The position numbers were made by a program, and so were the translations under genes. Below the pieces are notes generated by a model. That model did not search any database. It was given only the letters and a program-made list of their open reading frames with translations, and had not been told where the DNA came from. Shown here piece after piece: positions 20,525-45,535 of a stretch of DNA of 64,000 bases. The stretch is taken from positions 434,001 through 498,000 of the forward strand of contig DATMBG010000051.1 of assembly GCA_035559535.1 (NCBI GenBank), given 5' to 3'. Numbering within the stretch: the stretch's first letter is position 1; each line of letters opens with the position of its first letter. Source of the DNA: Candidatus Limnocylindrales bacterium (GTDB taxonomy: Bacteria > Moduliflexota > Moduliflexia > Moduliflexales > JAUQPW01).

Positions 20525-22234
20525 TTAAAAGAGAAAGTATCGCTGAGCCATGGGGAGTACTGAAGCCGGTTCGCATTTCAAGAGTATCCCGTCTGCCCGA
20601 ACTTCGTAGGTTTCCGGATCAACCTCCATTTTCGGAAGATAGGCATTGAGTTTCATATCTTTTTTTCCGATATTACGGCAATTTTTAACCGGTAGAAGGG
20701 GACGTTCGTGTTTAAACGAGATTCCCTTCTTCAGAGATATTTCCGATACGAAGCTATAAGCCGTACTTGCCGGAGCCTTTCCGAAGGAGCCAAACATGGG
20801 GCGATAGATAACCGGTTGGGGAGTTGGTATGGAAGCGTTGGGATCACCCATGGCATTGGCTGCGATGAATCCCCCTTTGAGGATAATTTCCGGTTTTACT
20901 CCGAAGAACGCCGGTTTCCAAAGTACCAAATCGGCTATTTTCCCTATTTCGATAGAACCCACATAACTGGAAATACCGTGGGTAATAGCCGGATTAATGG
21001 TGTATTTAGCTATGTATCGTTTCACTCTGAAGTTATCATTATCTCCTGTTTCCTCGGGGAGACGTCCTCGCTGTCGTTTCATCTTATCGGCCGTCTGCCA
21101 GGTTCGAATAATAACTTCTCCTACTCGACCCATAGCCTGGGAATCTGAACTCATCATGCTAAAGGCCCCCAGGTCGTGAAGAATATCTTCGGCAGCAATG
21201 GTTTCTGCCCGAATCCGGGATTCGGCAAACGCCACATCTTCAGGAATTTTAGGATCTAGATGATGACACACCATCATCATATCCAGATGTTCTTCTACAG
21301 TGTTAACCGTAAAAGGACGGGTGGGATTGGTTGAAGAGGGAAGGACGTTGGCTTCCCCGCAAACTTTGATGATATCCGGTGCGTGCCCCCCGCCTGCCCC
21401 TTCCGTATGATAGGTATGGATCGTCCGACCTTTAAAAGCGGCAATGGAATCTTCAACAAATCCCGATTCGTTCAGGGTGTCGGTGTGAATGGCAATTTGT
21501 ACATCGTAATCCTCTGCCACCGAGAGGGCACAATCAATGGTAGCCGGGGTGGTCCCCCAGTCCTCATGAAGTTTCAATCCAATAGCTCCTGCTTCAATCT
21601 GTTCAATAAGAGGTTTGGGAAGGGCCGAATTCCCTTTTCCTAAGAACCCAAAGTTCATGGGAAAACCTTCTACAGCTTCCAACATCCGGTGAATATTCCA
21701 GGCTCCGGGGGAACAGGTGGTTGCGTTGGTTCCCGTAGCAGGCCCCGTACCGCCTCCGACCATGGTTGTAATACCGGCATATAAGGCTTCCCAGATCTGC
21801 TGCGGACAGATAAAATGGATATGGGAATCAATACCCCCCGGGGTAACGATCAAGCCTTCCCCGGCGATCACCTCGGTAGAAGGCCCTACCACCATGGAAG
21901 GATCCACCCCGTTCATGACCCCCGGATTCCCTCCTTTGCCAATACCCCAAATACGACCATCTCGAATTCCAATATCTGCCTTTACAATTCCCCAGTAATC
22001 CAGGATGATGGCATTGGTAATAATCAAATCTAAGGCCCCGTCGGCCCGTGTATGCTGTGCCGACTGGCCCAGATTATCCCGAAGGACTTTACCACCCCCA
22101 AAGACACATTCGTCTCCATAATGGGTATAATCCTTTTCAATCTCAATGATCAATTCGGTATCGGCCAGTCGAACTTTATCTCCTGTGGTAGGACCAAACA
22201 AATTCGCATAGGTTCTTCTAGGTATTCTTAACAT
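20525..22234 (-). CDS. ureC: Urease alpha subunit
   Basis: [28 protein letters not shown]. Confidence 0.99.
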
Positions 22235-22601
22235 AGGATTCTCCCCTTTTTAGAGCTATGGCCTTCTTCTCCTCTAAATTGCCTCCAACTAAACCGTTCA
22301 ACCCATAGATAGTGCGGCTTCCTCCAATTTCTACCAGCTCGACCCTTTTCTGATCTCCGGGCTCAAATCTAACCGCCGTACCTGCGGGGATATTCAACCG
22401 CATACCATAAGCTTTCTCTCGATCAAATTGTAAAAACCGGTTCACTTCAAAGAAGTGATAATGAGAACCTACCTGAATAGGCCGATCTCCGGTGTTGGTA
22501 ACAACCAGCTCGATGACCTTCCGACTGACATTTGCAAGAATATCTTCTTCTTTGAGAATATATTCACCTGGAATCATCTGATTCGAAGCGTGAAAACTCA
22601 A
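22218..22601 (-). CDS. ureB: Urease beta subunit
   Basis: [31 protein letters not shown]. Confidence 0.98.
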
Positions 22602-22662
22602 AGATACAGGAACTTTCTGCCCTCGTATCTTCCTGCCTCCACACTTCCGGGTTTTTGTCCTT

Positions 22663-22968
22663 CTAGGATCTTATCGGGTCGTGGATCGTAACCAACTTCG
22701 TCCCATCGGGAAACGTCCCTTCTACTTGAATTTCTGTAATCATCTCCGGAACTCCCTCCATTACATCGTTCCGGGTGAGGATAGTCGCCCCGTAAGCCAT
22801 AAGCTCGGTAACGGATTTTCCGTCCCGAATACCCTCCAGGATCTCAGAGGTAATCAAAGCAACGGCTTCCGGGTAATTAAGCTTGAGTCCTCGTGCTCGC
22901 CGCTTTCTGGCCAACTCACCGGCCAGAAATATCAAGAGTTTTTCTTGCTCTCGTTCGGTTAAATACAT
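22663..22968 (-). CDS. ureA: Urease gamma subunit
   Basis: [24 protein letters not shown]. Confidence 0.98.
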
Positions 22969-23222: not shown

Positions 23223-23669
23223 TTGTCTGGTTAAAATTTAATTACGACGGAGTAGTGGGTTGATAAAAATTTTGATGATTTTTTAATCACCTTCTTCTAG
23301 ATCTGCTGGGAAATAAAAGCTAAGAGGATAAGGTAAAATATAGAAAGAGAAAGTATTACACAAACTGCCTATAACTTAGTAAATAGATGCCTAAACTTTA
23401 ATCAGATCTGACATTTGGATATGAGCCCCCCCATCCTAATTTTCCCTCCACCTATTTCCCTTGAGCTTGGGACAGGCCATGGCATGGGGTAAACGGCATA
23501 CCTATCAAGCTAAGAAGGGGAAAAGCCTTATTTTTGGTCTGAACACCCCCCCTCGAGGGGGAAGGGGGGGTGTTTCCCCACACGCGCCAGGATAAGGCTT
23601 AGCTGAACCTCCTGCGTGTCCCTGGTTGCAGAAAAGATGTTTGTCGAAACTAGAGGTTAACCCAGAAGA

Positions 23670-27129: not shown

Positions 27130-28482
27130 ATGAGGACTGTAGAAGTCAGATCCAGAAAGAGCGTGCTAGAGCAGTTCCTTGGGCTCTTCACCGAAGTTCG
27201 AGCCGGGGAAGGACCGACCGTCCTTCTATTGACCATAAACCTGTTTCTTATTCTGACTGCTTATTACGTCCTTAAACCTGTACGTGAAGCCCTGATCCTT
27301 GCGGGAGGAGGTGCCGAGATAAAAAGCTATGCGGCGGCGGGGCAGGCTCTCTTACTTCTCGGTGCAGTACCCCTCTATTCTGCACTGGCAAGCCGTTTCA
27401 CAAGACGCCGACTTATCAATACTGTTACGGTTTTCTTCACTGCTTGTCTGGTATTTTTCTACCTTCTCGCCCATCTTAATGTCCCCCTGGGAGTTGTGTT
27501 TTATTTGTGGATGGGAATCTTTAACCTGATGGTTATAGCTCAAATCTGGTCCTTTGCCAACGACCTTTATACTCCAGAAGAAGGAAAACGTCTCTTCCCT
27601 ATTGTAGCCTTTGGGGCTTCCTCAGGAGCTGTATTTGGAAGTTTTATTACCAGCCATCTTATCGGCCTGCTCGGAGTGTATCAACTTCTTTTGGTCGGTG
27701 CAGCTATTTTGATTCTAAGCCTTCTCATTACAAATTTCATCGATCAGCGAGAACAATACCAAGTTAAAATAAAGGCGGGACCGAAACCTGCCTTGTCACC
27801 AGGAGAAGCGCCCATTGGCAAAGGAGGCGGCTTTCAACTGGTTATTAAGAGTAAGTACCTGCTTTTAATCGCCTGCCTTATGTTATTTTTGAACTGGGTA
27901 AATACCAACGGAGAATATATCCTGGGAAAAACGGTATCAAAGGCGGCCATTGAGGCAGTAGCTTCAGGAAACTCGGGAGGGCTCTCCGAAAAAGAATTTA
28001 TAGGAAAGTTTTACTCGGACTTTTTTACCTGGGTAAACATGTTGGGACTCCTGGCCCAGCTTTTCCTGGTTTCTCGTATCCTCAAATACCTGGGCATACA
28101 GATTGCGATCCTTATTCTACCAATAATTGCCCTGAGTGGTTATGCCTTACTTGCCTTCTATCCCATCTTGGGTGTAGTCCGTTGGGTAAAGATTGCAGAG
28201 AATGCAACCGACTATAGTCTACAAAATACCGTTCGCAACGCTTTGTTTTTACCCACTACACGAGAAGAAAAATACAAAGCTAAACAGGCTGTTGACACCT
28301 TCTTTGTGCGGGCCGGAGATGTTCTCTCCGCAGGATTGGTCTATGTCGGGGTCAATAAGCTGGCCTTCAACACCAAAAATTTTGCCCTGGTAAACCTTGG
28401 GCTTGTGGTCATCTGGTTCATCCTTGCAATTTTTATCGGCAAAAAGAACCAACAATTAACGACTCCTGCCTCTCAAAGCTAA
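27130..28482 (+). CDS. NTT/TLC (ATP:ADP antiporter family) nucleotide transporter-like protein
   Basis: AYYVLKPVREAL, WSFANDLY...KRLFP, DYSL, EKYKAK..DTFFVRAGD; about 12 TM. Confidence 0.85.
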   Translation: MRTVEVRSRKSVLEQFLGLFTEVRAGEGPTVLLLTINLFLILTAYYVLKPVREALILAGGGAEIKSYAAAGQALLLLGAVPLYSALASRFTRRRLINTVTVFFTACLVFFYLLAHLNVPLGVVFYLWMGIFNLMVIAQIWSFANDLYTPEEGKRLFPIVAFGASSGAVFGSFITSHLIGLLGVYQLLLVGAAILILSLLITNFIDQREQYQVKIKAGPKPALSPGEAPIGKGGGFQLVIKSKYLLLIACLMLFLNWVNTNGEYILGKTVSKAAIEAVASGNSGGLSEKEFIGKFYSDFFTWVNMLGLLAQLFLVSRILKYLGIQIAILILPIIALSGYALLAFYPILGVVRWVKIAENATDYSLQNTVRNALFLPTTREEKYKAKQAVDTFFVRAGDVLSAGLVYVGVNKLAFNTKNFALVNLGLVVIWFILAIFIGKKNQQLTTPASQS

Positions 28483-28858: not shown

Positions 28859-28897
28859 TTAACAGAAATTTAACGAATCATTCATAATGGCATAATG
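28859..28897 (+). promoter_or_regulatory. Pho-box-like 11-bp periodic direct repeats
   Basis: ttaaca-gaaat-ttaacg-aatca-ttcata-atggc-ataatg, same architecture as upstream of pstS. Confidence 0.5.
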
Positions 28898-28972: not shown

Positions 28973-29287
28973 ATGAGCAAGTTATATACATCAGAAGAAT
29001 TTCACTTGAAATTAGAGGGACTTCATGTGAAGTGTCCTTATTGTAGTTCAGATGCAATTTATCGATATGGAAAGGCACGAACAGGAAAACAGCGCTTCCT
29101 ATGCCTCTTATGTGGAAAGCAATTTACCTTTGGAGCCAAAAAATCTGAGGTAAGGAATAGACCTACCTGTCCTACCTGTGGAAAGTTCATGCATCTCTAT
29201 AAGAGGGAAGAAAAAACCCTTCGATTCAGGTGTTCAAATTATCCAGAGTGCAGAACGTACCTGAAAACCCTAATGAAGGAGGGATAA
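28973..29287 (+). CDS. Double zinc-ribbon protein (InsA-like ribbon + topoisomerase-type C4 ribbon)
   Basis: CPYC..IYRYGK...QRFLCLLCGKQF and CPTCGKFM...FRCSNYPECR; next ATG 1 nt after its stop. Confidence 0.75.
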   Translation: MSKLYTSEEFHLKLEGLHVKCPYCSSDAIYRYGKARTGKQRFLCLLCGKQFTFGAKKSEVRNRPTCPTCGKFMHLYKREEKTLRFRCSNYPECRTYLKTLMKEG

Positions 29288-29288
29288 A

Positions 29289-29660
29289 ATGAGCTATTAT
29301 ATTCATAACATTCCAGGAAGACTACGCATCAAGACTCCTGTTGCTAAAAGCAGCTCTCAGCAGGCTAAAGCCATCCAAAGAATTCTTCACTCGATACCTG
29401 GCATTCTTTCAACCCTTGTAAACCCTCTTACAGGGAGTATTGTTATTCACTATGATCCTGAGGTAGTGAACTCGGAAGAAATCTTGAATACCCTGAATCA
29501 GCAAGATTATTTTGACTGGTCCCGGGCGGTAACAAATGATCAATATATACGGGATATAGTCGCAAAAATAGGTAAGGTAATTTGGAAAGCTTTTTTTGGA
29601 ACCTTGGTAGAAGAAGCCTTAGAAGGCTCTTCTCTCTCCTTCATAAAGGTTCTTATATAA
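29289..29660 (+). CDS. HMA2-like (FezC-like) domain protein
   Basis: YIHNIPGRLRIK...GI...NPLTGSIVIHYD; no CxxC. Confidence 0.8.
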   Translation: MSYYIHNIPGRLRIKTPVAKSSSQQAKAIQRILHSIPGILSTLVNPLTGSIVIHYDPEVVNSEEILNTLNQQDYFDWSRAVTNDQYIRDIVAKIGKVIWKAFFGTLVEEALEGSSLSFIKVLI

Positions 29661-29815: not shown

Positions 29816-31009
29816 TTATGATCCGGATAGAACCTGAACCTTATCGGTAACTTCCCAGGGAAGTCCCAAATCCATCCTGCCAACATGGCCATAGGCAGCC
29901 AGTTTTCTATAGAAACCTCCCTTAACGGTAGCAGGAAGAAATCTCAGGTTAAATTGTTTAATGATCCCCGCAAGGCGAAAATCGAAATGTTTCTGAATGC
30001 GCGTCATGATTTCTTCATCGGGGATTTTACCTGTGCCAAAGGTTTCTACCTGAACACTTACGGGTCGTGAAAGGCCGATGGAATAACTTAACTGAACCTC
30101 GCATTCAGAGGCAAGGCCGGCGGCAACCACATTTTTAGCAGCATATCGGGCTACATAGGCACCGATCCGATCTATTCGCATAGGATCCTTTCCGCTCAGA
30201 GCAGCACCACTATGTCGAGAATATTCTCCATAGGTATCTATGGCCGTTTTTCTTCCGGTAAGGCCAGAGTGGCTGGAGGGACCGCCTATAATGAGTGGGC
30301 CATCTGGGTTGATGAATATTCGGGTTTTTTCGTCGGGCTGAATTTCTTCATCTTGAAATACCGGACCAATAATAACCTCCCGGAGATCTTCTCTCAGCTT
30401 CGCTAAATCGGGATCTTTGGGTTTATTTTGACTGGCTATAACTGTGATACTATGAATCCGATAGGGCTTACGATTTCTATATTCGACGCCTACCTGGGTC
30501 TTGCCATCGGGAGTGAGATAGGGGAGTATTTTTTGGAATCTTACGGAGGTAATCCGCCTTGCAAGCTTATGGGCAAGCCAGATTGGAAGAGGCATCAGGG
30601 CGGGAGTTTGGTCACATGCAAAGCCAAAAACCGTAACCTGGTTTTTTACAGGAATCTGGTCTATTTCCTCCTCTGACAGCTTTTTTTCGTCAAAATACAT
30701 TTGCTCTTCTAGGGGTGACTCCTTAAGACTGGTTACAATACTGCAAGTCTTACTGTTAAAATCCGGGTATTCATAACCGACTTGACTGATGACCTGTCTT
30801 GCAGTATTTGGAATATCCACGCTGGCGGTAGATGCAAATCGGGCCGCTATGAAGAGGATAGCCGTAGATACTGCACATTCCGCAATAATACTGGAATAAG
30901 GATCCTGTTGAAGGAATCTATCGATGATGGCATCACTGATTTGATCACAAAGCTTATCAGGATGCCCTTCCGTGACAGATTCCGATGTAAACATGAAATC
31001 TTTTTTCAT
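29816..31009 (-). CDS. metK: Divergent methionine adenosyltransferase (MetK) paralog
   Basis: FTSESVTEGHPDK, PDGK, GLTGRK, SGKD, AAYGH retained; GAGDQG signature replaced by PVKNQV. Confidence 0.9.
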   Translation of the reverse strand: MKKDFMFTSESVTEGHPDKLCDQISDAIIDRFLQQDPYSSIIAECAVSTAILFIAARFASTASVDIPNTARQVISQVGYEYPDFNSKTCSIVTSLKESPLEEQMYFDEKKLSEEEIDQIPVKNQVTVFGFACDQTPALMPLPIWLAHKLARRITSVRFQKILPYLTPDGKTQVGVEYRNRKPYRIHSITVIASQNKPKDPDLAKLREDLREVIIGPVFQDEEIQPDEKTRIFINPDGPLIIGGPSSHSGLTGRKTAIDTYGEYSRHSGAALSGKDPMRIDRIGAYVARYAAKNVVAAGLASECEVQLSYSIGLSRPVSVQVETFGTGKIPDEEIMTRIQKHFDFRLAGIIKQFNLRFLPATVKGGFYRKLAAYGHVGRMDLGLPWEVTDKVQVLSGS

Positions 31010-34360: not shown

Positions 34361-35071
34361 TTATTCCTGTTTTCTTCCCTTTGTCCTTGTCGTAATCTCC
34401 GGCTTTTCAGGAGCTTCTTGAGGAGTTTCCTTAGAAAGTTTCTTCTCTTCTAAACTTGAAGAAGTTGGAGAAGGTTTAGGTAGTGCAGCTCCTACAACTT
34501 CCTTCGCCCCCTCCGCAACTCCAACGAGCATATCCTTAACAGCTTTGACTGCCGTGTTTCCAATGGTACTGGCTGCTTCAATGGCACCGAGAACAACTTC
34601 TCTCGCAACAGCTTCTACATTCCCACCCATTTCTCGAGTTGCTTCGATAATCCCATCTACCGAGCGCCTTGTTACAAGACCGATATCTGCTCCAATTTCA
34701 GCAGCACCTTTGAACGTCCCTTTAACGGTTTGAACTGCGACGGTAACCACATCCCCTCCCACATCGCTAACTCCCATGATAACCCCCTTGGCGACATTTT
34801 TGGCGCTCAAGATTAATCCTGTTCCTACCTCTTCGGTAGCCTGAATGGCTCCATTTATAATCTCCTTGGTGATATGGATACTTTCTGTAGCTGTTGATCC
34901 TGTAGTTCGCAGGGTGTGCGAAACAGTATTCCTGACCAGCGTAGTAATCTCGGCCTCGATTTCGTTGATCCCTCTCAAACTCCCTATAATCCCTTCCTTA
35001 ACCGTTTTCCCAGCTTTCCCTAATTCCCCTCCCAGAGTGGCATTTGATGTGTTGTCCTTATGATCATTCAT
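34361..35071 (-). CDS. Gly/Ala/Val/Thr-rich protein with tandem 22-aa amphipathic repeats
   Basis: GGAGG RBS; about 8 gapless 22-mers, with Gly at positions 6 and 15 in the five central units. Confidence 0.8.
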   Translation of the reverse strand: MNDHKDNTSNATLGGELGKAGKTVKEGIIGSLRGINEIEAEITTLVRNTVSHTLRTTGSTATESIHITKEIINGAIQATEEVGTGLILSAKNVAKGVIMGVSDVGGDVVTVAVQTVKGTFKGAAEIGADIGLVTRRSVDGIIEATREMGGNVEAVAREVVLGAIEAASTIGNTAVKAVKDMLVGVAEGAKEVVGAALPKPSPTSSSLEEKKLSKETPQEAPEKPEITTRTKGRKQE

Positions 35072-35115: not shown

Positions 35116-35619
35116 TCACGGGTCCTTTCTGTTCTTATCTGACTTAAACTTAAAAAACTCATAAACACTGAATCCGTACCAAAAAGCCGTATACCAGGGA
35201 ATAGGTGCGAGATTTCCCCTGAGAATTTGAAAAAGACCTGCGCTCACCAGACCTAAAAACACCAGGCCTGGAAAATCCAGAGTACCCCGGGTAAACTCCT
35301 TCATTCGATTCTCTAACTCTTGAAGTTGTCTGGATATCGTCCAGGATAAGTTCTCTGACTGAGGGTTCAGATCTCCAAGTTGAAAAAGATTATTTTTTTG
35401 AGCATATGCTGCAAGGGCTTTCCAGTCCCGAGTGTCCCCCGTATGAACAAAAAGTATGCTTCCCGTTAAGGGGTTTACTTCTAGCTTTTTAATTCCCGGA
35501 TAGGTAGAAAACAGAGTCTTCAGAGATGAAAAATAAACTTCATCTCCTCTTTTCGAGGGAATTTTTATACGTAGCCTTTCGGTTGTAGAATGAACGATAT
35601 AAGCATCGGGAAGCATCAA
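35116..35619 (-). CDS. HMA2-like domain + C-terminal membrane segment (FezC-like)
   Basis: IVHSTTERLRIK...NPLTGSIL, then GLVFLGLVSAG...PWYTAFWYG. Confidence 0.8.
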   Translation of the reverse strand: MMLPDAYIVHSTTERLRIKIPSKRGDEVYFSSLKTLFSTYPGIKKLEVNPLTGSILFVHTGDTRDWKALAAYAQKNNLFQLGDLNPQSENLSWTISRQLQELENRMKEFTRGTLDFPGLVFLGLVSAGLFQILRGNLAPIPWYTAFWYGFSVYEFFKFKSDKNRKDP

Positions 35620-35915
35620 TGGATGGGTTCTCCTTTAGCGTTAACAATAGGGGACGTTTTTTGGGATGTTTCTGAGAGTTCCGCCTTTGCCTCCGCGATT
35701 ATATCTTCAACCATCTCTCCAGCTTCAGCAACTAGTTCTCTACCCTTTTCATAGATAAGGATCCCACTTTTTATAGCGGCTTTGGCTAAAGGTTTAACTA
35801 CATTGGCTGCAATGGGAATTACAACCGGCGAGAGGATCGTTGCTCCTACGCCTATTGCAAGTCCGGTTGCAATACTACCTCCTAAACCATCCCTAAGATC
35901 ATCTAAAAGAGCCAT
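35616..35915 (-). CDS. DUF5132-like small GxxxG membrane protein (FezA/PacL-like)
   Basis: GLAIGVG, KPLAKAAIKSGILIYEKG, EAGEMVEDIIAEAKAE; GGAGG RBS. Confidence 0.8.
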   Translation of the reverse strand: MALLDDLRDGLGGSIATGLAIGVGATILSPVVIPIAANVVKPLAKAAIKSGILIYEKGRELVAEAGEMVEDIIAEAKAELSETSQKTSPIVNAKGEPIH

Positions 35916-36284
35916 AATAAACCTCCTTTTTTTATCTTTGTTTGTGTACCAGTTATTATAAAAATCTCAAAAGATTAACCCCACAGGGAGTTAACATCAT
36001 AAAAATAGTTCCTTGCCCTACAGGTGGTTAGCAATTTTTATAATTTTTTCATTACTTACCTACTCATAGAAATGACCTCCTTTACCCGTCCTTTATCCCA
36101 ATTCTGATTAAGTAGGTCGCACCCTAGGCACTCCCCCTGAAAAGGTTACATCCTGAGGAGGGACGGCTGTACAGGGCCCTTAGGCAGGTAATCCTTCCCT
36201 CCCCGCATGGAGAGAGAGTTAAAGTAGGACCCTATCCACTTTACATCCCATTTCCTTACTGACCTGGTATCAGTTTTATTTCCT

Positions 36285-36393
36285 TTAATAAAATCTTAAC
36301 AGAAACGTCACGGAACTATAACACGGCAGGAGTGAAGTTATAAAAGATTCGGATTTAATACAATTTTAATACCGTCATCATACAAACATAATA
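36285..36393 (+). promoter_or_regulatory. Two arrays of Pho-box-like 11-bp repeats upstream of pstS
   Basis: ttaata/ttaaca/gtcacg/ataaca at 36285, 36296, 36307, 36318; ttaata/ttaata/atcata/ataata at 36355, 36366, 36377, 36388. Confidence 0.7.
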
Positions 36394-36516
36394 ATCAGGC
36401 GGCTTATTAAGAGTGACTTCTTTAGGATAAAGAATCGGATTAACCCAATTCTCATCAGATGGTCCTTTACAGACCATGGTATTGTTTACCCACTAAAGAT
36501 AAAGGAGGTTAAATTT

Positions 36517-37527
36517 ATGAGAAACCAAAACTTTTGGATCCGTTATCTATTCATTCCAGTTGGGATACTTTTACTGGTCGGATATACCCTTGCCCAGGAG
36601 ACCTCTGTTAAAGTAGATCCCGCCATTCCCGATTATAAGCCGACCAAAGGTATTTCAGGAAATCTTAAGAGTGTCGGTTCGGATACCATGAATAACTTGA
36701 TGACCCTATGGGCAGAAGGCTTTAATAAGTTTTATCCTGGGGTTAAAATTGAAATTGAAGGAAAAGGTTCCAGTACGGCTCCACCTGCATTGACTGCCGG
36801 AACCGCCCATTTTGGTCCTATGTCTCGAGAGATGAAGGCTCAAGAGATCGATGAGTTTGAGAAAAAGTATGGTTACAAACCCACAGAAGTGAAAACCTCT
36901 CTGGATGTTCTGGCGGTTTATGTTCACAAAGATAATCCTATCCAATGCCTGAGTCTTCCGCAGATCGATGCGATCTTTTCCAAAACCCGACGGGGAGGTT
37001 ATGAAAAGGATATACGAACCTGGGGAGATCTGGGTTTAACAGGGGAATGGGCTGATAAACCTATCAGTCTGTATGGGCGTAATAGCGCTTCCGGTACTTA
37101 TGGATACTTCAAGGAGCATGCCTTATTTAAGGGTGATTACAAGGATGAAGTCAAAGAACAACCCGGAAGCTCATCAGTTGTGCAGGGCGTTGCTTCAGAT
37201 AAATTCGGAATCGGCTACAGTGGAATTGGTTACAAGACGGCAGATGTACGGGCTGTACCCCTTGCAGCCAAGGAAGGGGCTACCTGCTATGAGGCTAATA
37301 TGGAAAATGCTTACAGCGGCGAATATCCCATTGCCCGATTCTTATATATCTATGTCAATAAAGCCCCGGGTAAGAGCCTCGATCCACTGCGACGAGAATT
37401 TCTGAGTTTCGTTTTAAGCAAACAAGGTCAGGAAGTTGTCGTGAAGGATGGATTTATTCCTTTACCCGCCAGTTTGATTCAGGAAGAAAGAAGCAAACTA
37501 GGCCTCATGGAGAATAATAAAGGTTAA
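36517..37527 (+). CDS. pstS: Phosphate ABC transporter substrate-binding protein
   Basis: [22 protein letters not shown]. Confidence 0.95.
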
Positions 37528-37632
37528 GACCGTAACCTGAATCTATTGTTCGTTGTCCGCCGGGTCCCGTTGTCAGGGATAACGGTAGCGGACAACGGGC
37601 AATGGGTGAAGGAATAGAATAAATAAAGGAAC

Positions 37633-40302
37633 ATGGAGGACGGACAACGAACTACAGATCATAGGCTGCCGGTCAGATCGAAACGCCCAAGAAAAACCAA
37701 AAGAAGCGTTATCTTCATTGATAAGTTTTCTACAACTATTATCAGTCTTGGGGGTATTCTGGTAATCATAGCCGTACTGGGAATCTTGATATTTCTAATA
37801 ACGGTCGTAGTTCCTCTCTTCCGGGGTGCCAGGGTAATTTCTTTTACCTCTTATAACCTTCCTCTCACAGATCGGGAGTTACTCTTTGCGGAGATGGACG
37901 ATTATTTATCGTTAGGGATGGCTTTATCCAGAGATGGCTTTCTGACTACCTTCCAGGCTTCGACAGGAAAGAAGATGTTTGAAGAGAGAATAGTCCCTTC
38001 CGACGCCGAGATAACTGCCTTCTCCAGGACCTTACGCAGAGGTTATGTGGCTCTAGGGTTGTCCAATGGAGAGGTTTCTCTGGGAAACCTCTCGTTTAAG
38101 ATTTCCTTTCCTACGGAAGAAGAGGTTCCGGAAGAATTTAAGAATTTGAGTCCTGGAGCCTCAGTGGTATTTGGAAAAGGGATCTTAGAGAGAGCCCCGG
38201 AAGGTCAATTCCGAAAGATTGAAGAACAGATAGAATTTGCTCCACCTGTAAAAGTAGGAACAAGTCAAGCTTCGGTAGTTTTGATAGATTACAGGCCCCT
38301 GGAAGGCCAGATAGAGGAATTAGTTACCCTCCAGGCAGATGGTCGGTTGTTCTTGAGCAGGGTGACCAGGAAGAAGAATCTCCTGACCGGTAAAGTAACC
38401 ACCAGTTTAGACAGGAGGGAAATACCCTACTCAGAGTCTGAGAACCAAAAGTCGAAAACCGGGGAGTTAGAACCAGGCCTGCCCATAAAACTTTTGGTAA
38501 GTGGGCAGGGAGATCAGCTTTACCTGGCCTGGAAGGATGGAACACTCCATCGATACGACCTTCGGAATCCGGAAAAAGCCGTTGTTGTCGAGAAAACTAA
38601 TCTGATTCAATGGAATACAACGAATACTCAACAACGAATCCTTACCCAATTAAAGTTCATGATCGGAGATCAATCCCTTATCTCTACAGATTCTGCGGGA
38701 AACGTTATCGCCTGGTTTCGGGTAGAAAAAGGACCCCAGGCCCGGGGAAGCGACGGCTATGAACTTGTTCCGGCCCATATACTGGAAAAGCATCATGGCC
38801 CGGTATCGGCTTTGGCCGTGTCGCCCCGGGATAAAAGCCTGGTTACGGCAACTTCCGATGGGGAAGTTTTCCTCCGGCATATGACTTCAGAACAGGTTCT
38901 TGCCCGGTTGTCCCTTCCTTCCAAAGAAGAGATCCTTACCATCCAATTAACTCCTAAATTGGATGGTATCTTTGCCGTCGATAAATCGCTAACGGCTTAT
39001 CTCTGGAAAATCCATAATCCGCATCCAGAAACAACCTGGAAGTCTATCTTTGGTAAAGTCTGGTATGAGGGATATCCGAAACCTACTTATACCTGGCAAT
39101 CCTCCAGTGGAACCGACGATTTTGAGCCAAAACTCAGTCTGGTCCCCTTAATCTTCGGTACCCTGAAGGCAACGTTTTACTCTCTCCTGTTTGCGGTACC
39201 GGTGGCTCTTCTGGCTGCAATTTATACTTCTGAGTTCCTGGATAAAAAACTTAAATCTATTCTAAAACCCGGTATAGAGACGATGGCTTCCCTACCCAGT
39301 GTAGTTTTAGGTTTTATTGCGGCCTTGGTGTTGGCTCCTTTCGTGGAGAACTGGGTCCTGTCCATCTTGTTTGCCTTTGGGATGCTACCTTTGATTCTTC
39401 TCTTCTGGGGCTATATCTGGCAGCTTTTACCCCCCCAAATTACCATCCGACTCTCAGGAGCCCTTCAATTTATCATTATCCTGGCCGTGATGATAATCGG
39501 TTTTAATTTGGCCGAGAATTTAGGCGTGAGGGTAGAAAAGCTGATTTTCCATGGAGATTTTAAAGCCTGGCTGGATGGGCGCATTGGAACGGGTACCCCT
39601 CTCTGGTTTATCCTGTTTTTCCCCTTTTCAATCCTCCTGGTTTCTCTATTTAAAAAAAGGTTCCTAAACAGGATAATCTGGGAAAGGATCTCTTATAAAA
39701 ATCACCTGAGAGCAGGGTTAATAGAATTTATGGGGGCCCTCTCCGTCTTTATAGTATCCGTTTTTCTAAGTTATGGAACAGGCCTATTACTGACAACCCT
39801 GGGATGGGATGCGCGGGGCGAGTTGGTTGGAACTTATGTACAAAGAAATACTCTGATCGTCGGGTTTGCCATGGGATTTGCGGTTATTCCCATTATCTAT
39901 ACCATCACCGAAGATGCTCTGGCTGCGGTTCCTGAATCTCTTCGTGCAGCCTCCTTAGCCTGTGGAGCGACACGATGGCAGACGGCCATTCGAATTGTTC
40001 TTCCCACGGCGGCCAGTGGGATCTTTTCGGCTGTTATGGTCGGCCTGGGGAGAGCCGTTGGGGAAACCATGATTGTGGTCATGGCAGCCGGAAATACACC
40101 GGTTCTGGATCTAAATATTTTCAACGGACTTCGTGCCTTATCTGCCAACATCGCCGTGGAATTACCGGAAGCAGTTAAAGACAGTACCCTGTATCGGATG
40201 CTTTTCCTGGCAGCGCTACTGCTCTTTGTAATGACTTTTATCGTTAATACCTTAGCTGAAATTATTCGACTCAGATTTAGAAAGAAGGCCTATCAACTCT
40301 AA
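37633..40302 (+). CDS. pstC: Phosphate ABC permease PstC with a large periplasmic propeller-like insert
   Basis: LPSVVLG, GRAVGETM, EAA loop; operon position. Confidence 0.92.
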   Translation: MEDGQRTTDHRLPVRSKRPRKTKRSVIFIDKFSTTIISLGGILVIIAVLGILIFLITVVVPLFRGARVISFTSYNLPLTDRELLFAEMDDYLSLGMALSRDGFLTTFQASTGKKMFEERIVPSDAEITAFSRTLRRGYVALGLSNGEVSLGNLSFKISFPTEEEVPEEFKNLSPGASVVFGKGILERAPEGQFRKIEEQIEFAPPVKVGTSQASVVLIDYRPLEGQIEELVTLQADGRLFLSRVTRKKNLLTGKVTTSLDRREIPYSESENQKSKTGELEPGLPIKLLVSGQGDQLYLAWKDGTLHRYDLRNPEKAVVVEKTNLIQWNTTNTQQRILTQLKFMIGDQSLISTDSAGNVIAWFRVEKGPQARGSDGYELVPAHILEKHHGPVSALAVSPRDKSLVTATSDGEVFLRHMTSEQVLARLSLPSKEEILTIQLTPKLDGIFAVDKSLTAYLWKIHNPHPETTWKSIFGKVWYEGYPKPTYTWQSSSGTDDFEPKLSLVPLIFGTLKATFYSLLFAVPVALLAAIYTSEFLDKKLKSILKPGIETMASLPSVVLGFIAALVLAPFVENWVLSILFAFGMLPLILLFWGYIWQLLPPQITIRLSGALQFIIILAVMIIGFNLAENLGVRVEKLIFHGDFKAWLDGRIGTGTPLWFILFFPFSILLVSLFKKRFLNRIIWERISYKNHLRAGLIEFMGALSVFIVSVFLSYGTGLLLTTLGWDARGELVGTYVQRNTLIVGFAMGFAVIPIIYTITEDALAAVPESLRAASLACGATRWQTAIRIVLPTAASGIFSAVMVGLGRAVGETMIVVMAAGNTPVLDLNIFNGLRALSANIAVELPEAVKDSTLYRMLFLAALLLFVMTFIVNTLAEIIRLRFRKKAYQL

Positions 40303-40315
40303 CAGGAAGAAGAAA

Positions 40316-42082
40316 ATGAGAAAAATCGATAGAACCCGCTTGAAAGAAGAACCGAACTTGCAGAAGCCAGCCGGCCCGGAAAAATTTCAGAAAAAAAAGC
40401 ACGCTTCCCGTCCTACCCTGCAAGGGGAGCCTCTGGTCTGGCTGACCGGTGGAGGTCTGGCTCTTGCCACTTTGATGGTCACCGGATTGCTCTTTTTGGT
40501 TTTTTATCAAGGTATCTTGACTTTTTGGCCTGAACCCCTCGTCAAAGTAGTAGATCGACAAGGAAGAGTCTATCTGGGGGAAATTACCCGTAAAGAAAGC
40601 TATCATCCCGGTCAGGAGGTTCTAAAACAACTCCCGGAACCCCAAGATCCCAGGGCTAAAAGTCTCCTGAAGAGGGGAATTGCCGAGAGAATCTTGATAA
40701 GAACGGGAAATTACGATCTCTACGGAGATGATTTTAAATGGATCTCGCTTTTCGAGATTCAGGAAAAAGAGTACCCTCCGGAGGCTATTACTGTGGAACG
40801 TTTAGAGTGGGGACCTTTCTATGGATTTATGGAAGAGTTTCGAATCGATGGCAATCCTATAGCCCAGGGACCTACAGAAACCTGGAAAAAATTCCAAGAA
40901 TTCCATGATCAGGCCAGGGAACGTTATCTAAAAATCAAACAGATGGAGAAAAAGGATCTGGATGGGGTTAATACGCAAATTGAGGAATCTAGATTAAAGC
41001 TCAGAAAAGCCGAGTTAATTTATGGAAAGAACTCGGATCGTTATAAGAAAATACGGGCTCAGATCGAAAAGGAAGAAAACGCTTTAACCATACACTATCA
41101 TCAAATAAGTGAACAAATAACCCGACTCCAGGAAGAAAACAATCGTTATAAAATTTTGCTGAAAGAAGTGGGTGGGACTCCTAAAGAAATCGGTTTATTT
41201 GAAGTGGTTCGCGCCTATCGGGCCAATGAGTTGAACTTTTGGGAGAGATTAAAAATCTACCTCTCCCGTTGGTGGGAGTTTCTAAGCAGTGAGCCCCGGG
41301 AAGCCAATACGGAAGGAGGGGTTTTTCCGGCTATTTTTGGGACTTTTGTAATGACCGTTATCATGTCCCTGGCTGTAGCTCCCTTTGGGGTTATTGCTGC
41401 CTTATATTTAAGGGAATATGCCAAACAGGGACCTTTGGTATCCGGGGTACGGATTGCGGTCAATAATTTAGCCGGGGTACCCAGTATTGTTTTTGGTGTT
41501 TTCGGTCTTGGCTTTTTCTGCTATATAGTAGGTGGAACGATCGATTCGATATTTTTCCCTGAAAAGCTTCCGGTACCCACCTTCGGTACAGGTGGAATCC
41601 TTTGGGCTTCGCTGACCCTGGCTTTATTGACGGTTCCTGTGGTTATTGTCGCTACGGAAGAAGCCCTGGCCGCCGTCCCCAGAAGTATGCGAGAAGGTTC
41701 CTATGCCTGTGGTGCCAGCAAGTGGCAAACCATTCGAAGGGTCGTACTTCCTCAAGCAACCCCTGGCATTATGACGGGATTAATTCTGGCCATGGCGCGG
41801 GGAGCCGGAGAAGTCGCCCCCCTGATGATTACCGGGGTCGTTAAACTGGCTCCCCAACTACCCCTGGATGATCGCTTCCCCTATTTCCACCTGGAGCGAA
41901 GTTTTATGCATCTGGGATTTCACATTTATGATGTCGGATTTCAATCTCGAAATTCAGAAGCCGGAAAACCTATGGTATTCACGACAACGCTTCTCCTCAT
42001 TCTTTTGATCGTAACCTTGAATGCAACGGCCATTTACTTGCGCAATAAACTCAAAAGAAAATATAAGGTAGGACATTTCTAA
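40316..42082 (+). CDS. pstA: Phosphate ABC permease PstA (long form)
   Basis: EGGVFPAIFGT, LAGVPSIVFG, ARGAGEVAP. Confidence 0.94.
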   Translation: MRKIDRTRLKEEPNLQKPAGPEKFQKKKHASRPTLQGEPLVWLTGGGLALATLMVTGLLFLVFYQGILTFWPEPLVKVVDRQGRVYLGEITRKESYHPGQEVLKQLPEPQDPRAKSLLKRGIAERILIRTGNYDLYGDDFKWISLFEIQEKEYPPEAITVERLEWGPFYGFMEEFRIDGNPIAQGPTETWKKFQEFHDQARERYLKIKQMEKKDLDGVNTQIEESRLKLRKAELIYGKNSDRYKKIRAQIEKEENALTIHYHQISEQITRLQEENNRYKILLKEVGGTPKEIGLFEVVRAYRANELNFWERLKIYLSRWWEFLSSEPREANTEGGVFPAIFGTFVMTVIMSLAVAPFGVIAALYLREYAKQGPLVSGVRIAVNNLAGVPSIVFGVFGLGFFCYIVGGTIDSIFFPEKLPVPTFGTGGILWASLTLALLTVPVVIVATEEALAAVPRSMREGSYACGASKWQTIRRVVLPQATPGIMTGLILAMARGAGEVAPLMITGVVKLAPQLPLDDRFPYFHLERSFMHLGFHIYDVGFQSRNSEAGKPMVFTTTLLLILLIVTLNATAIYLRNKLKRKYKVGHF

Positions 42083-42242
42083 GTTGCCCGAGAATAGAAT
42101 ATGGAGGTTAATCCCCTATACCTTAAGCTAATGCTTCCTCCCCGACCTTTCCCCGCTTTGCAGGGAAAGAAATTTGCGCCAAAGTTTCTTTCTCTGTAAA
42201 ACAGGGAAGGAATAGGGCGAAGATACCCTTTAGCAGGGCTTT

Positions 42243-43106
42243 ATGAAGACCATGAAAAATTCTACTCATTGGATCAGGTCTAAGTCTGTAGAAGAGAAGT
42301 TAGAAGAATTTGCAGAACTGGAGTCGACCATTCATCCAGAACTGGACACCGAAAATGCTATTATCGAAATAAAGGACTTTAATCTCTGGTACGGGTCTCA
42401 ACAGGCACTCTATAATATCAACATGCGTATTCCTTATGGGAAAGTGACGGCCCTTATGGGACCCTCGGGTTGTGGAAAGTCTACATTGATCCGCTGTATC
42501 AACCGATTGAACGATTTAATAGATAACGTTCGTATCAAAGGGGAAATGTATCTCAATAAAGATCCCATTTATGCTCCAGATGTGGATGTGATCGAACTCC
42601 GAAAACGGATTGGTATGGTTTTTCAAAAATCCAACCCCTTCCCCATGAGCATTTACGAAAACGTAGTTTATCCACTTCGAATCGATGGAGAAAATCGCAA
42701 AGCTGTTTTGGATGAGGTTGTGGAGCGAAGCTTAAAAAGTGCTGCGCTGTGGGAGGAAGTCAAAGACCGACTTCACCATTCGGCGCTGGAACTTTCCGGT
42801 GGTCAACAACAACGTCTCTGCATCGCCCGGGCTATTGCCCAGGAACCGGAAGTGCTACTCATGGATGAACCTTGCTCGGCCCTGGATCCCATCGCAACGG
42901 GAAAAATCGAGGATCTTATCCACGCCCTCAAAGGGGAGTATACCGTGGTGATCGTAACCCATAACCTACAGCAAGCGGCCCGAATCTCAGACTATACGGC
43001 TTTCATGTACCTTGGAAAGCTTATTGAATTCGGACCCACGGCAGTTATTTACCAAAATCCTATAAGGCCTCAAACCGAGGCCTATATCACAGGTCGATTT
43101 GGATAA
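42243..43106 (+). CDS. pstB: Phosphate ABC ATP-binding protein
   Basis: [28 protein letters not shown]. Confidence 0.97.
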
Positions 43107-43308
43107 TAGGAAATCAGGAGCCGGGGATCAGGGACCGGAAGGAAAGAAGGAATACCAAATCTCTATTGAAATACGCCACAGGCTGGATGACCTCTCCCCG
43201 TTCGGACTTTGATAAATTCAGGACGAACGGTATACGGCTGCCGGCTCATTTCAATCAGAAATAGGTATGACGCCGGTCCCTGATTCCTGAATTCTGACTC
43301 CTGGAGAT

Positions 43309-43983
43309 ATGAGAGAACACCTTGTCCGAGAACTTATGGGACTAAAAGCAAAATGGATCGATCTGAGTCGGCATGTCATTACCCAGTTGGATGATGCGAT
43401 TTCTTCTTTATTAACCGATAACTATGAACTGGCTCAAAAAGTCATCGAAGAGGACTCAGATATAGACCATCAGGAAGTCTTGATCGAAGAAGAGTGCCTG
43501 AAGATTATAGCCCTCTATCAGCCGGTATCCCGGGACTTACGTCTGATTGCAGCCATCTTAAAAGCCAACAACGACTTAGAACGAATCGGAGATCATGCTG
43601 TTAATATCGCCCAAATGACTTTAAGCCTTCGGGATAACCCCATTAAAAATTTCCCTCCCCATCTGGGAGAGATGACCCAAAAGGTCACCGATATTTGCCA
43701 ACGGGGATTCCAGGCATTTATAGATGGGGATCTGGAAATGGCCCGGGTAATTTGTAGAGAAGATCGGACCGTGGACGAACTGGAAGAGTATATTTACGCT
43801 GAAACAAAAAAAGCCCGTGAGGCAGGAATTTTAAATTTTGACCATGCGCTTTATTTGCATAGATTTGCCAGGGAATTGGAGCGGGTTTCCGATCTTATCA
43901 CCAATATTGCCGAAGACACCATTTATCTGATCACAGGTAAAATCGTCCGACATAACCCGGACATAAAGGGTTATATCACCTGA
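43309..43983 (+). CDS. phoU: Phosphate signalling protein PhoU
   Basis: QPVSRDLR, DLERIGDHAVNIA, ELERVSD. Confidence 0.95.
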   Translation: MREHLVRELMGLKAKWIDLSRHVITQLDDAISSLLTDNYELAQKVIEEDSDIDHQEVLIEEECLKIIALYQPVSRDLRLIAAILKANNDLERIGDHAVNIAQMTLSLRDNPIKNFPPHLGEMTQKVTDICQRGFQAFIDGDLEMARVICREDRTVDELEEYIYAETKKAREAGILNFDHALYLHRFARELERVSDLITNIAEDTIYLITGKIVRHNPDIKGYIT

Positions 43984-44006: not shown

Positions 44007-44702
44007 TTATACCGTTAAGTGCCTGCGGACAATCTCTTCTCCAATTTCCTGCCTTGTTCCCTGGGCAACAATAGTACCTTTGTCCATGATATAATAAGTA
44101 TCGGCCAGACGTTCAGCGAACTCGATGTACTGCTCGACCAACAAAATTGTAATTTTGCCTTCGGCTTTAAGGTGGGCAATAACTTCCTCGATTTCGAGAA
44201 TAATGGACGGTTGAATACCTTCTGTGGGCTCATCCAGTAATAAGAGTTGGGGTTCTCCTACCAGGGCCCGGGCAATGGCCAGTTGTTGTTGTTGACCTCC
44301 GCTCAATACCCCACCCTGACGCTGAAGCATGGTCTTGAGAACCGGGAACAAGCGAAATACCTCCTCCGGGAGGGTCTGTTGCTTATCTTTTCGGGCTTCT
44401 AATCCCAGTCGTAAATTTTCACCTACACTGAGTTGGGGAAAGATTTCTCGTCCCTGGGGTACATAGCCAATCCCCATGCGGACCCGTTCATGGGTACTAC
44501 GTCGGGTAATGTCTTTCCCTTGAAAGATGACCCGACCGCTACGGACCGGGAGGAGACCCATGATTCCTTTAAGCAAGGTAGTCTTGCCGGCCCCATTACG
44601 TCCCATCAGACAGACTATCTGCCCGGCCGGTACCTGCAGGCTTACCTGCCTCAAAATATGACTCTGACCGTAATAAACATTCAGATTCTCAACACTCAAC
44701 AT
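44007..44702 (-). CDS. urtE: Urea ABC ATP-binding protein UrtE
   Basis: YGQSHIL, GRNGAGKT, DEPTEGIQPSII. Confidence 0.93.
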   Translation of the reverse strand: MLSVENLNVYYGQSHILRQVSLQVPAGQIVCLMGRNGAGKTTLLKGIMGLLPVRSGRVIFQGKDITRRSTHERVRMGIGYVPQGREIFPQLSVGENLRLGLEARKDKQQTLPEEVFRLFPVLKTMLQRQGGVLSGGQQQQLAIARALVGEPQLLLLDEPTEGIQPSIILEIEEVIAHLKAEGKITILLVEQYIEFAERLADTYYIMDKGTIVAQGTRQEIGEEIVRRHLTV

Positions 44703-44720
44703 AACCGTGGTTTTTAACTT

Positions 44721-45491
44721 TTACCTCCCCGTTGAATTGTCGTTACGTTTCCTTCCCAGATAGATCTCCACAACCCGTGGATCGTTTTGGACCACTTCTA
44801 CCGGGCCCTCACACAAAACCTGCCCCTCGTGAAGAACCGTAATTTTCCGTGCAATCTGACGTACAAAGGCCATATCATGTTCAATAACCAACACAGAATG
44901 ATCCTCTGCAATTCTTTCCAATAGCTTGGCCGTGTGGGCCGTTTCTTGATCGGTCATACCGGCAACCGGTTCATCAATGAGCAAAAGTTTAGGTTCCTGT
45001 AACAAAACCATGCCGATCTCTAACCACTGTTTTTCACCATGGGCCAGGACTCCTGCCGGCACATGGGCTTTGGATGCCAATCCGGTGATATCCAATACCG
45101 TCTCGATACTTTGTAATTGCCTGGATGAAAGAGGGGACAGCAGGGTTGCAAACACACCTCGCTTGGGTTGGTAAAGGGAAAGCTCTAGATTTTCAAAAAC
45201 GGTCAGGTGATTGAATACCGAAGGAGTTTGAAATTTACGACCTACGCCCAGCCGAACGATTTCATGTTCACGGAGTCGGGTGATATCGGTATTCATTCCG
45301 AAAATCACCCGACCCTCTGCAGGTCTGACCCGCCCTGAAATCACATCCAGCAAGGTGGTTTTACCTGCTCCATTGGGACCGATAACCACTCGCAGCTCGG
45401 GATAATCCATATAAAAGTTTAACCTCTGCAGAGCCTTGAAACCGTCAAAGCTTACCGTTACGTCTTCTAGATAGATAATGGATCCTTGCAT
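44721..45491 (-). CDS. urtD: Urea ABC ATP-binding protein UrtD
   Basis: SFDGFKAL, GRKFQTP, HGEKQWLEIGM. Confidence 0.93.
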   Translation of the reverse strand: MQGSIIYLEDVTVSFDGFKALQRLNFYMDYPELRVVIGPNGAGKTTLLDVISGRVRPAEGRVIFGMNTDITRLREHEIVRLGVGRKFQTPSVFNHLTVFENLELSLYQPKRGVFATLLSPLSSRQLQSIETVLDITGLASKAHVPAGVLAHGEKQWLEIGMVLLQEPKLLLIDEPVAGMTDQETAHTAKLLERIAEDHSVLVIEHDMAFVRQIARKITVLHEGQVLCEGPVEVVQNDPRVVEIYLGRKRNDNSTGR

Positions 45492-45535
45492 TTTAAATTA
45501 ACTTCCCCCATTAACCCTTAACATGATTCCAGAGA

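Follow-up and report, generated by a model that had tools for sequence, protein, structure and literature searches.

A MetK-like protein with replaced methionine ligands is the genetic partner of a P2A-type ATPase that carries a CoBaHMA domain

The DNA analysed here (the window) is a stretch of 64,000 nucleotides from contig DATMBG010000051.1 of the assembly GCA_035559535.1, deposited as a Candidatus Limnocylindrales bacterium. Its minus strand carries, at positions 29816..31009, a gene for a protein of 397 amino acids (P0001) that has the fold of methionine adenosyltransferase (MAT), the S-adenosylmethionine (SAM) synthetase encoded by metK. In this MetK-like paralog, referred to as MetKL, the ligands of the metal ions and of the triphosphate are kept and those of methionine are replaced. 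MetKL is very probably a neofunctionalised MAT-fold protein and not a SAM synthetase. Its gene is an obligate genetic partner of the gene for a P2A-type P-type ATPase tagged with a CoBaHMA domain, and it is very likely that the protein is a functional partner of this pump as well. The complete proposal, in which the pump partner MetKL would cleave a triphosphate in a context of phosphate scarcity, is given a probability of about one half.

The MetKL reading frame is intact, with zero internal stops, and its product matched all three MetK Pfam domains, PF00438, PF02772 and PF02773, with E-values of 4.7e-33, 4.6e-37 and 4.3e-56, respectively. An AlphaFold2 model computed from a 59-row alignment (mean predicted local distance difference test score 95.1, predicted template modelling score 0.93) was compared with solved structures using Foldseek, and the template modelling scores against MetK chains were 0.87-0.91 at 37-43% identity. 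The top sequence match among solved structures was the MetK of L. plantarum (E 5.6e-101). MetKL has in common with canonical MetK (EC 2.5.1.6; E. coli, PDB 1FUG/7LL3; L. plantarum, 7R3B) the three-domain fold and the set of His, Asp, Glu, Lys and Arg residues for Mg2+, K+ and the triphosphate. It differs from the canonical enzyme by an acidic insertion of 10 residues in the gating-loop region, an insertion of 7 residues close to the C-terminus, its coexistence with a true metK and its constant position next to a P-type ATPase. The TIGR01034 score of MetKL was 388.5 bits, above the equivalog cut-off of 309.4 bits and about 215 bits under that of a second metK match found on another contig of the same genome (5.6 Mb in 58 contigs). 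Since this second copy, with 602.9 bits, has every canonical motif, MetKL is a paralog and not the sole metK, as had been anticipated in an earlier reading made from the sequence alone. A canonical metK was present in all six carrier genomes tested (the window's and 5/5 others). The TIGR01034 cut-off fails to separate the MetKL family from true MetK.

The amino acid sequence of MetKL was aligned using MAFFT with that of E. coli MetK, taken from its RefSeq record, and with those of 80 relatives and 96 representatives; residues are numbered as in E. coli MetK counting Met1. According to PMC3853416 and PMC1282579, whose mature numbering is lower by one, the amino group of methionine is bound by E55 and D238 and its carboxylate by Q98 and K269; the ligands of the ribose hydroxyls are D163 and D238, the adenine is stacked upon by F230, and the catalytic acid is proposed to be H14. 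The changes in the window's protein, with its own numbering given second, are as follows: GGEI is changed to AARF (G55 to A, E56 to R57, I57 to F), GDCGLTGRK to SHSGLTGRK (D239 to H247), GAGDQG to PVKNQV (G118 to K122, D119 to N123, G121 to V) and RF to PL (R230 to P238, F231 to L239), K270 is replaced by R278, and the changes of G259 to S and F263 to L lie in a motif that reads HSGAALSGKD. Residues H15, D17, K18, E43, D164, K166, R245, K246, K266 and D272 are kept, so that the metal-triphosphate apparatus of MAT is complete, with the catalytic His, two Mg ligands, the K+ ligand and a cluster of Lys and Arg. The GAGDQG hexapeptide and the GGGAFSGKD-type motif, the PROSITE signatures of MetK, are both degenerate in MetKL, with G118, D119, G121, G259 and F263 altered throughout the family.

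Comparison with the E. coli protein bore out most of what the sequence-only reading had proposed, namely the substitutions E56R, D239H and K270R, the change of GAGDQG to PVKNQV and the retention of H15, D17, E43, the DxK and RK motifs and K266. The acid-to-base swaps that it had pointed out are real for E56R, D239H and G118K/R; K270R stays basic. It had also read Q99 as replaced by Glu (KQSP to KESP). The Gln is gone in every alignment, but the identity of the replacement depends on the method (S with MAFFT, a deletion with phmmer, E by eye). The change of RF to PL is present in the window but is not a trait of the family, where F231 is mostly kept. To judge from the aligned residues, the active site has lost all its methionine ligands, has an intact triphosphate and metal half and differs in part of its adenosine half, and the methionine site cannot work as it does in MAT. 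The pocket next to the triphosphate has gone from acidic to basic, with a shift of about five charge units per site (E56R, D239H, D119N, G118K).

Conservation was assessed in a family set of 81 members, which consisted of the window and 80 loci taken from one genome per species, and in two control sets of 69 canonical MetKs each, one from a metagenome scan and one from representatives. R56, H239, R270, L263 and S259 are fixed in 81/81 family members, and N119 is found in 78/81; at position 99, S or L, or a gap, takes the place of Gln. Twelve positions are fixed in the family and unlike the canonical consensus: G55A, E56R, D119N, Q189S, H190Q, D239H, V249I, G254E, G259S, K270R, V271I and L345F. 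Canonical controls kept D239 and K270 in 69/69 sequences of both sets; Q99 and D119 were kept in all 69 metagenome controls and in 66/69 and 68/69 of the representatives, respectively. On the retained side, H15, D17, K18, E43, D164, R245, K246, K266 and D272 are present in every family member and K166 in 79/81. These counts indicate that purifying selection acts on the triphosphate, Mg and K site just as it does in a functioning MAT. F231 is found in 75/81 members, with L in five, the window among them, and V in one. Because D164 is universal and F231 is mostly kept, the adenosine half-site is not lost across the family, and ATP (adenosine triphosphate) or another nucleotide would therefore still be a possible ligand. 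The reading frame, read to the first stop, is intact in all 81 members, and those from several phyla share 73-83% identity with the window's protein. The median pairwise ratio of nonsynonymous to synonymous substitution rates (dN/dS, Nei-Gojobori) was 0.077, with a range of 0.02-0.16, as calculated from the 320 of 3240 pairs with 0.05 < dS < 1.5.

A quick maximum likelihood tree was inferred with IQ-TREE (LG+G4) from 109 rows. Subsampling omitted 61 of the 81 family rows, and representatives shorter than 350 amino acids, longer than 430 amino acids or gappy at key sites were excluded. A branch with 97% support in the Shimodaira-Hasegawa-like approximate likelihood ratio test (SH-aLRT) separates the rows with H239 and R270 from the canonical ones; 32 of the 34 rows on its side have both residues. 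Within it, the window and 19 sampled family rows form a tight family (99% SH-aLRT), and a cyanobacterial subgroup has 97% SH-aLRT. A wider and more divergent set (P0122-P0156) has H239, R270 and L263 in common with the family, and the metagenome scan recovered none of the deeper H239/R270 branches (P0132, P0133, P0134, P0136 and similar). The substitutions thus define a supported clade under purifying selection, which is the outcome of the alignment and tree that the sequence-only reading had put forward as a check.

The gene directly upstream of MetKL, on the same strand and separated from it by a gap of 106 nucleotides, encodes a P2A-type P-type ATPase of 1058 amino acids (P0002; 31116..34292, minus strand) with an N-terminal CoBaHMA (HMA_2) domain. 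This pump lies directly upstream in 73 of the 80 genome loci, the other seven having less than 1.5 kb of upstream DNA, and clustering of open reading frames placed a member of the pump's cluster in 87 of 90 loci. The metagenome scan yielded 11 non-canonical loci, with 52-78% identity to the window's MetKL, and the 69 canonical ones. The pump was directly upstream in 9/10 testable non-canonical loci vs 0/69 canonical metK loci; one non-canonical locus (L100) had only a weaker ATPase-like match, located downstream, and another (L096) had no upstream DNA. A reverse census was taken of 201 sampled Nitrospirota genomes. MetKL was found in 31 of them and as a contig-end fragment in one more (G051), and a pump of at least 58% identity was found in exactly the same 32 genomes. 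Both genes are adjacent and on one strand in 30 of these 32; in the remaining two, G171 and G051, contig ends come between them. A further genome (G111) combines a pump of 47% identity with canonical MetK only, and 168 genomes have neither gene. In Chlorogloeopsis fritschii PCC 6912 there are two copies of MetKL, and a separate pump gene precedes each. The link between the clade and a cation pump, first suspected from the window alone, holds in both directions, and MetKL is an obligate genetic partner of the CoBaHMA-tagged P2A ATPase.

The nearest solved relatives of the ATPase are human SPCA1 (8IWP, 492.8 bits) and Listeria LMCA1 (6ZHF, 489.6 bits). The alignment spans about 870 residues, and the PEGL motif and the M6 Asn/Asp of Ca2+ site II are kept; the protein scores under every NCBIfam equivalog cut-off. 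It differs from SPCA1 and LMCA1 by the extra N-terminal CoBaHMA domain and by its dedicated MAT-fold neighbour. The CoBaHMA domain comprises the first 80 or so residues (HMA_2, 29.6 bits, just below the 30-bit cut-off), and its H9, G14, R15 and R17 are invariant in 36/36 aligned pumps, including the cyanobacterial ones. A predicted complex of two MetKL chains with the CoBaHMA domain of the ATPase (residues 1-90) had a score of 0.00, which is evidence neither way. In one of the 32 Nitrospirota carriers (G052:C3:658062-660643) the pump is split over three frames, with one stop, beside an intact MetKL; this may be a pseudogene or a sequencing error.

A search for Rosetta-stone fusions retrieved three sequences among 139 long matches (P0273, P0274, P0304) in which ATPase and MetKL sequences are joined. 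Each is a truncated ATPase in frame with a MetKL missing about 8, 130 or 175 N-terminal residues, and the junction differs in each; one of the three is named 'methionine adenosyltransferase domain-containing protein'. They are deletions across adjacent genes or assembly artefacts and not designed fusions.

The connection with phosphate comes from the surroundings of the gene pair. A pstS-pstC-pstA-pstB-phoU phosphate-uptake operon (36517..43983, plus strand) is divergent from the minus-strand run that starts with a DUF5132 gene and ends with MetKL, and the starts of the two operons are 601 nucleotides apart. Nitrospirota or their neighbours account for all occurrences of PstS, which was found in 16/90 related loci, and also for those of an OlsB-like Gcn5-related N-acetyltransferase (PF13444, 10/90), a PlsC-type acyltransferase (PF01553, 14/90), and CorA, a cation diffusion facilitator and a low-molecular-weight phosphatase (7/90 each). 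The OlsB-like and PlsC-type genes form a pair directly 3′ of MetKL, on the same strand, in several Nitrospirota loci (L009, L064 and 8-12 others); from the Pfam assignments, we take them to be the gene pair for ornithine lipids, which are free of phosphorus. The window was also scanned with a Pho-box pattern consisting of three KTNAY units at an 11-base pair phase, which is not a curated model for the host organism. Four KTNAY-like units in this phase, resembling a Pho box, are located upstream of pstS in the intergenic region shared by both operons (36285..36322, plus strand), and three to four such units lie about 90 nucleotides upstream of a zinc-ribbon/CoBaHMA gene pair on the other side of MetKL (28859..28896, plus strand). 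Scans for sigma-70 promoters and terminators were at the level of shuffled sequences (16 vs 10.8 and 9 vs 8.0, respectively). The phosphate link is positional. The PstC (889 amino acids, 37633-40302) and PstA (588 amino acids, 40316-42082) encoded in the window are two to three times the usual length; their permease domains are C-terminal, and the long N-terminal extensions match no family.

In the mechanism that we favour, MetKL would still bind the Mg/K-triphosphate moiety and would cleave a triphosphate-bearing ligand. The other half of this ligand would be anionic or absent, and the rebuilt basic half-site would hold more negative charge. Inorganic tripolyphosphate (PPPi) or the end of a short polyphosphate would be the ligand of first choice, followed by a nucleoside triphosphate, and MetKL would act in the cytosol, jointly with the pump or in its service, under phosphate scarcity. 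MAT itself has a tripolyphosphatase half-reaction (PPPi -> PPi + Pi), which is described in PMC3853416, and all the residues that surround the triphosphate in MAT are retained in MetKL. In MAT the PPPi step follows adenosyl transfer within SAM synthesis, whereas in MetKL it would probably be the principal or sole reaction. The catalytic residues are kept in 81/81 members or, for K166, in 79/81, whereas in a pseudoenzyme their loss would be expected.

Several observations weigh against this proposal. The mechanism is deduced from which residues are kept and which are changed, and the invariant H15, as the acid for C5′-O5′ cleavage, together with the mostly kept D164 and F231, would fit an adenosine-containing ligand as well as, or better than, bare tripolyphosphate. 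The assignment of the transported ion as Ca2+-type is suggested by homology only, and the 139 long matches included no true MetKL-ATPase fusion. As for phosphate, the cyanobacterial loci lack the pst and Ols neighbours. The enrichment of the KTNAY pattern is weak (three matches in the window vs 0.44 expected, with 2/100 shuffles reaching three), the third match precedes an unrelated histidine kinase, and the minus strand ahead of the DUF5132 gene (35916-36516) contains no KTNAY array.

The strongest competitor takes up the adenosine side of this evidence. MetKL could be an ATP-dependent adenosyl or nucleosidyl transferase, or a nucleoside triphosphate triphosphohydrolase, that cleaves the C5′-O bond of the nucleotide as MAT does and passes the nucleoside to an anionic, amine-free acceptor or to water, the released tripolyphosphate being then hydrolysed. 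The catalytic-acid His, found in 14/14 members of the wider clade in addition to all those of the family, is what such an enzyme would need, the ribose ligand D164 and the adenine-stacking F231 of most members agree with it, and E56R, D239H and K270R would suit an acceptor that carries additional negative charge and lacks an amine. However, D239 is also a ligand of the ribose hydroxyls (PMC3853416), and it is His throughout the family; F231 is Leu in the window and variable in the wider H239/R270 clade. No conserved neighbouring gene suggests a candidate acceptor, and a metabolic transferase would not require strict adjacency to a pump. We regard this reading as possible and put it at well under an even chance. 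Somewhat less probable still is a sensor subunit, non-catalytic or slowly cycling, that would bind ATP, PPPi, polyphosphate or Mg2+/K+ and gate or localise the CoBaHMA-ATPase. The obligate two-way co-occurrence and adjacency argue for it, as do the invariant His and basic residues of the pump's CoBaHMA domain (H9, R15, R17), a domain that bioRxiv 10.1101/2024.07.07.602159 and 10.64898/2025.12.07.689555 propose to be regulatory and to bind anionic partners. Binding alone would not call for the full triphosphatase catalytic set that is conserved, and contact between MetKL and the pump is hypothetical.

Two further readings would leave MetKL within the ordinary biology of metK. One is that it is still a SAM synthetase, a second and stress-specific isozyme that binds methionine differently. 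The protein passes the TIGR01034 cut-off, it goes by the name of methionine adenosyltransferase in every source (among the best 120 relatives, this is the label of all those with a source name), and archaeal MATs, according to PMC3853416, hold the carboxylate by other residues. The same paper indicates that archaeal MAT keeps the Asp equivalent to D239. In the MetKL family all four methionine ligands are changed in 81/81 members, and in two cases the new residue would repel the alpha-amino group; D239, K270, Q99 and D119 are kept in 69/69 canonical metagenome MetKs, and a canonical metK was present in each carrier genome tested; such an isozyme is highly improbable. The other is that MetKL is a functionless metK duplicate in decay, the alternative that the sequence-only reading had named for itself. 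A low score with the metK model and two degenerate signature motifs could be expected of a decaying copy, but the frame is open in the whole family, identity is high across phyla, dN/dS is low and the substitutions are fixed, not scattered. Decay is refuted by these data and retains practically no probability. Triphosphate cleavage by a neofunctionalised pump partner is the reading that we prefer.

The pump and MetKL are part of a larger set of genes. The minus-strand run consists, in order, of genes for a DUF5132 protein of 99 amino acids with one hydrophobic segment and a helix (35616..35915), a CoBaHMA (HMA_2) protein of 167 amino acids with a C-terminal hydrophobic segment (35116..35619), a Gly/Ala/Val/Thr/Glu-rich protein of 236 amino acids with amphipathic repeats (34361..35071), the pump and MetKL. 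Convergent with MetKL, on the plus strand, are the paired genes for a zinc-ribbon protein of 104 amino acids (28973..29287) and a CoBaHMA (HMA_2) protein of 123 amino acids (29289..29660). Neither a transmembrane segment nor a significant Pfam or NCBIfam family was found for the repeat protein, which is conserved in non-cyanobacterial loci. Among the 80 genome loci, DUF5132 occurs in 48, the CoBaHMA protein with the hydrophobic tail in 35, the repeat protein in 35, the small CoBaHMA protein in 34 and the zinc-ribbon protein in 23, where its pairing with CoBaHMA recurs. In cyanobacterial loci the set is limited to the pump and MetKL, to which a DUF5132 or DUF5132-HMA_2 gene is often added. In 22 cyanobacterial loci (e.g. 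L044:3688-4257, minus strand), the strand opposite to the pump carries, upstream of it, a gene resembling those of pyridoxamine-5′-phosphate oxidases (PF16242).

HMA_2 corresponds to the CoBaHMA domain of the calcyanin literature, and bioRxiv 10.1101/2024.07.07.602159 describes the ccyA locus of Microcystis aeruginosa PCC 7806 as a candidate gene set for intracellular amorphous CaCO3. Accessory parts described there are also found here: DUF5132, stand-alone CoBaHMA proteins, a Ca2+ transporter and a CoBaHMA protein with a C-terminal helical hairpin. The transporter of the ccyA locus is a Ca2+/H+ exchanger, whereas here it is a P2A ATPase, and the marker of that locus is calcyanin, whereas here there are a Gly/Ala-rich repeat protein and MetKL (calcyanin was not searched for). 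In its available part, that paper mentions no MetK-like gene, and the word 'adenosylmethionine' occurs 0 times.

In the window's phylum MetKL was found in one of the nine genomes of the collection, the window's own, and a genome of the same genus (G006, 97% complete) has canonical metK only and no MetKL. The insertion site of the island is not definable because the contigs of G006 break at approximately position 26712 of the window. When the window's genome and two Nitrospirota were each compared with three cyanobacteria, MetK proteins shared 52-55% identity and MetKL proteins 71-76%. Among the three cyanobacteria, the values were 89% for MetK and 80-84% for MetKL. A slower clock for MetKL was considered and ruled out, as it is less conserved than MetK within cyanobacteria; the high cross-phylum identity of MetKL therefore reflects lateral transfer and not stronger constraint. 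These identities indicate that the pump-MetKL pair was transferred between phyla after the phyla had diverged. MATX, a divergent eukaryotic MAT paralogue, is like MetKL in its divergence and lateral spread. In PMC3923989, MATX takes the place of MAT and is regarded as a functional MAT, whereas MetKL coexists with MetK and has lost the methionine site.

The island is flanked by urease subunit genes (20525-22968) and by the genes urtCDE of a urea ATP-binding cassette transporter (44007-46672). Beside it is also a gene for a membrane protein of 450 amino acids (27130-28482) with weak matches at both ends to TLC ATP/ADP (nucleoside tri-/diphosphate exchange) transporters (PF03219, E 1.7e-11; TIGR00769, E 6e-12, far below the cut-off), and the other 80 loci yielded no such protein. 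A dispersed repeat only some 50-130 nucleotides long (23484-23614), which lies between the urease genes and an Omp85-like gene, has more than 30 matches, with 76-93% identity, on many contigs of G006; it looks like an element of the repetitive extragenic palindrome or miniature inverted-repeat transposable element type.

A wider interpretation can be offered tentatively. MetKL may be a dedicated cytosolic subunit of a new P-type ATPase machine, and the first MAT-fold protein that is an obligate partner of an ion pump, coupling the cleavage or sensing of tripolyphosphate, polyphosphate or nucleotide to Ca2+-type transport. The module that it would form with the CoBaHMA, DUF5132 and repeat proteins would be laterally mobile and would handle stores of cation-polyphosphate or carbonate at low phosphate.

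No paper on the MetKL family was found in the literature searched, the founding CoBaHMA paper (Proteins 92:776) and supplements being outside the search, and the string 'adenosyl' is absent from the available parts of the DUF5132 and CoBaHMA papers searched. No described precedent was found for a soluble protein that is strictly co-inherited with a P2A ATPase as its partner. Where the metabolism of Nitrospirota, Desulfobacterota, Binatia and many Nostocales is reconstructed, MetKL may be counted as a second SAM synthetase, probably wrongly. To enzymologists, MetKL offers a natural experiment in which the two halves of an active site that is among the most conserved known have parted ways, the triphosphate half staying frozen and the methionine half being rebuilt. 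The CoBaHMA and DUF5132 parts tie the module to the question of intracellular calcium carbonate or phosphate inclusions in bacteria, and the pst and ornithine-lipid-type neighbours tie it to phosphate starvation. Cultivable carriers exist, among them Chlorogloeopsis fritschii PCC 6912 and several Nostoc strains, and the question is directly testable in them.

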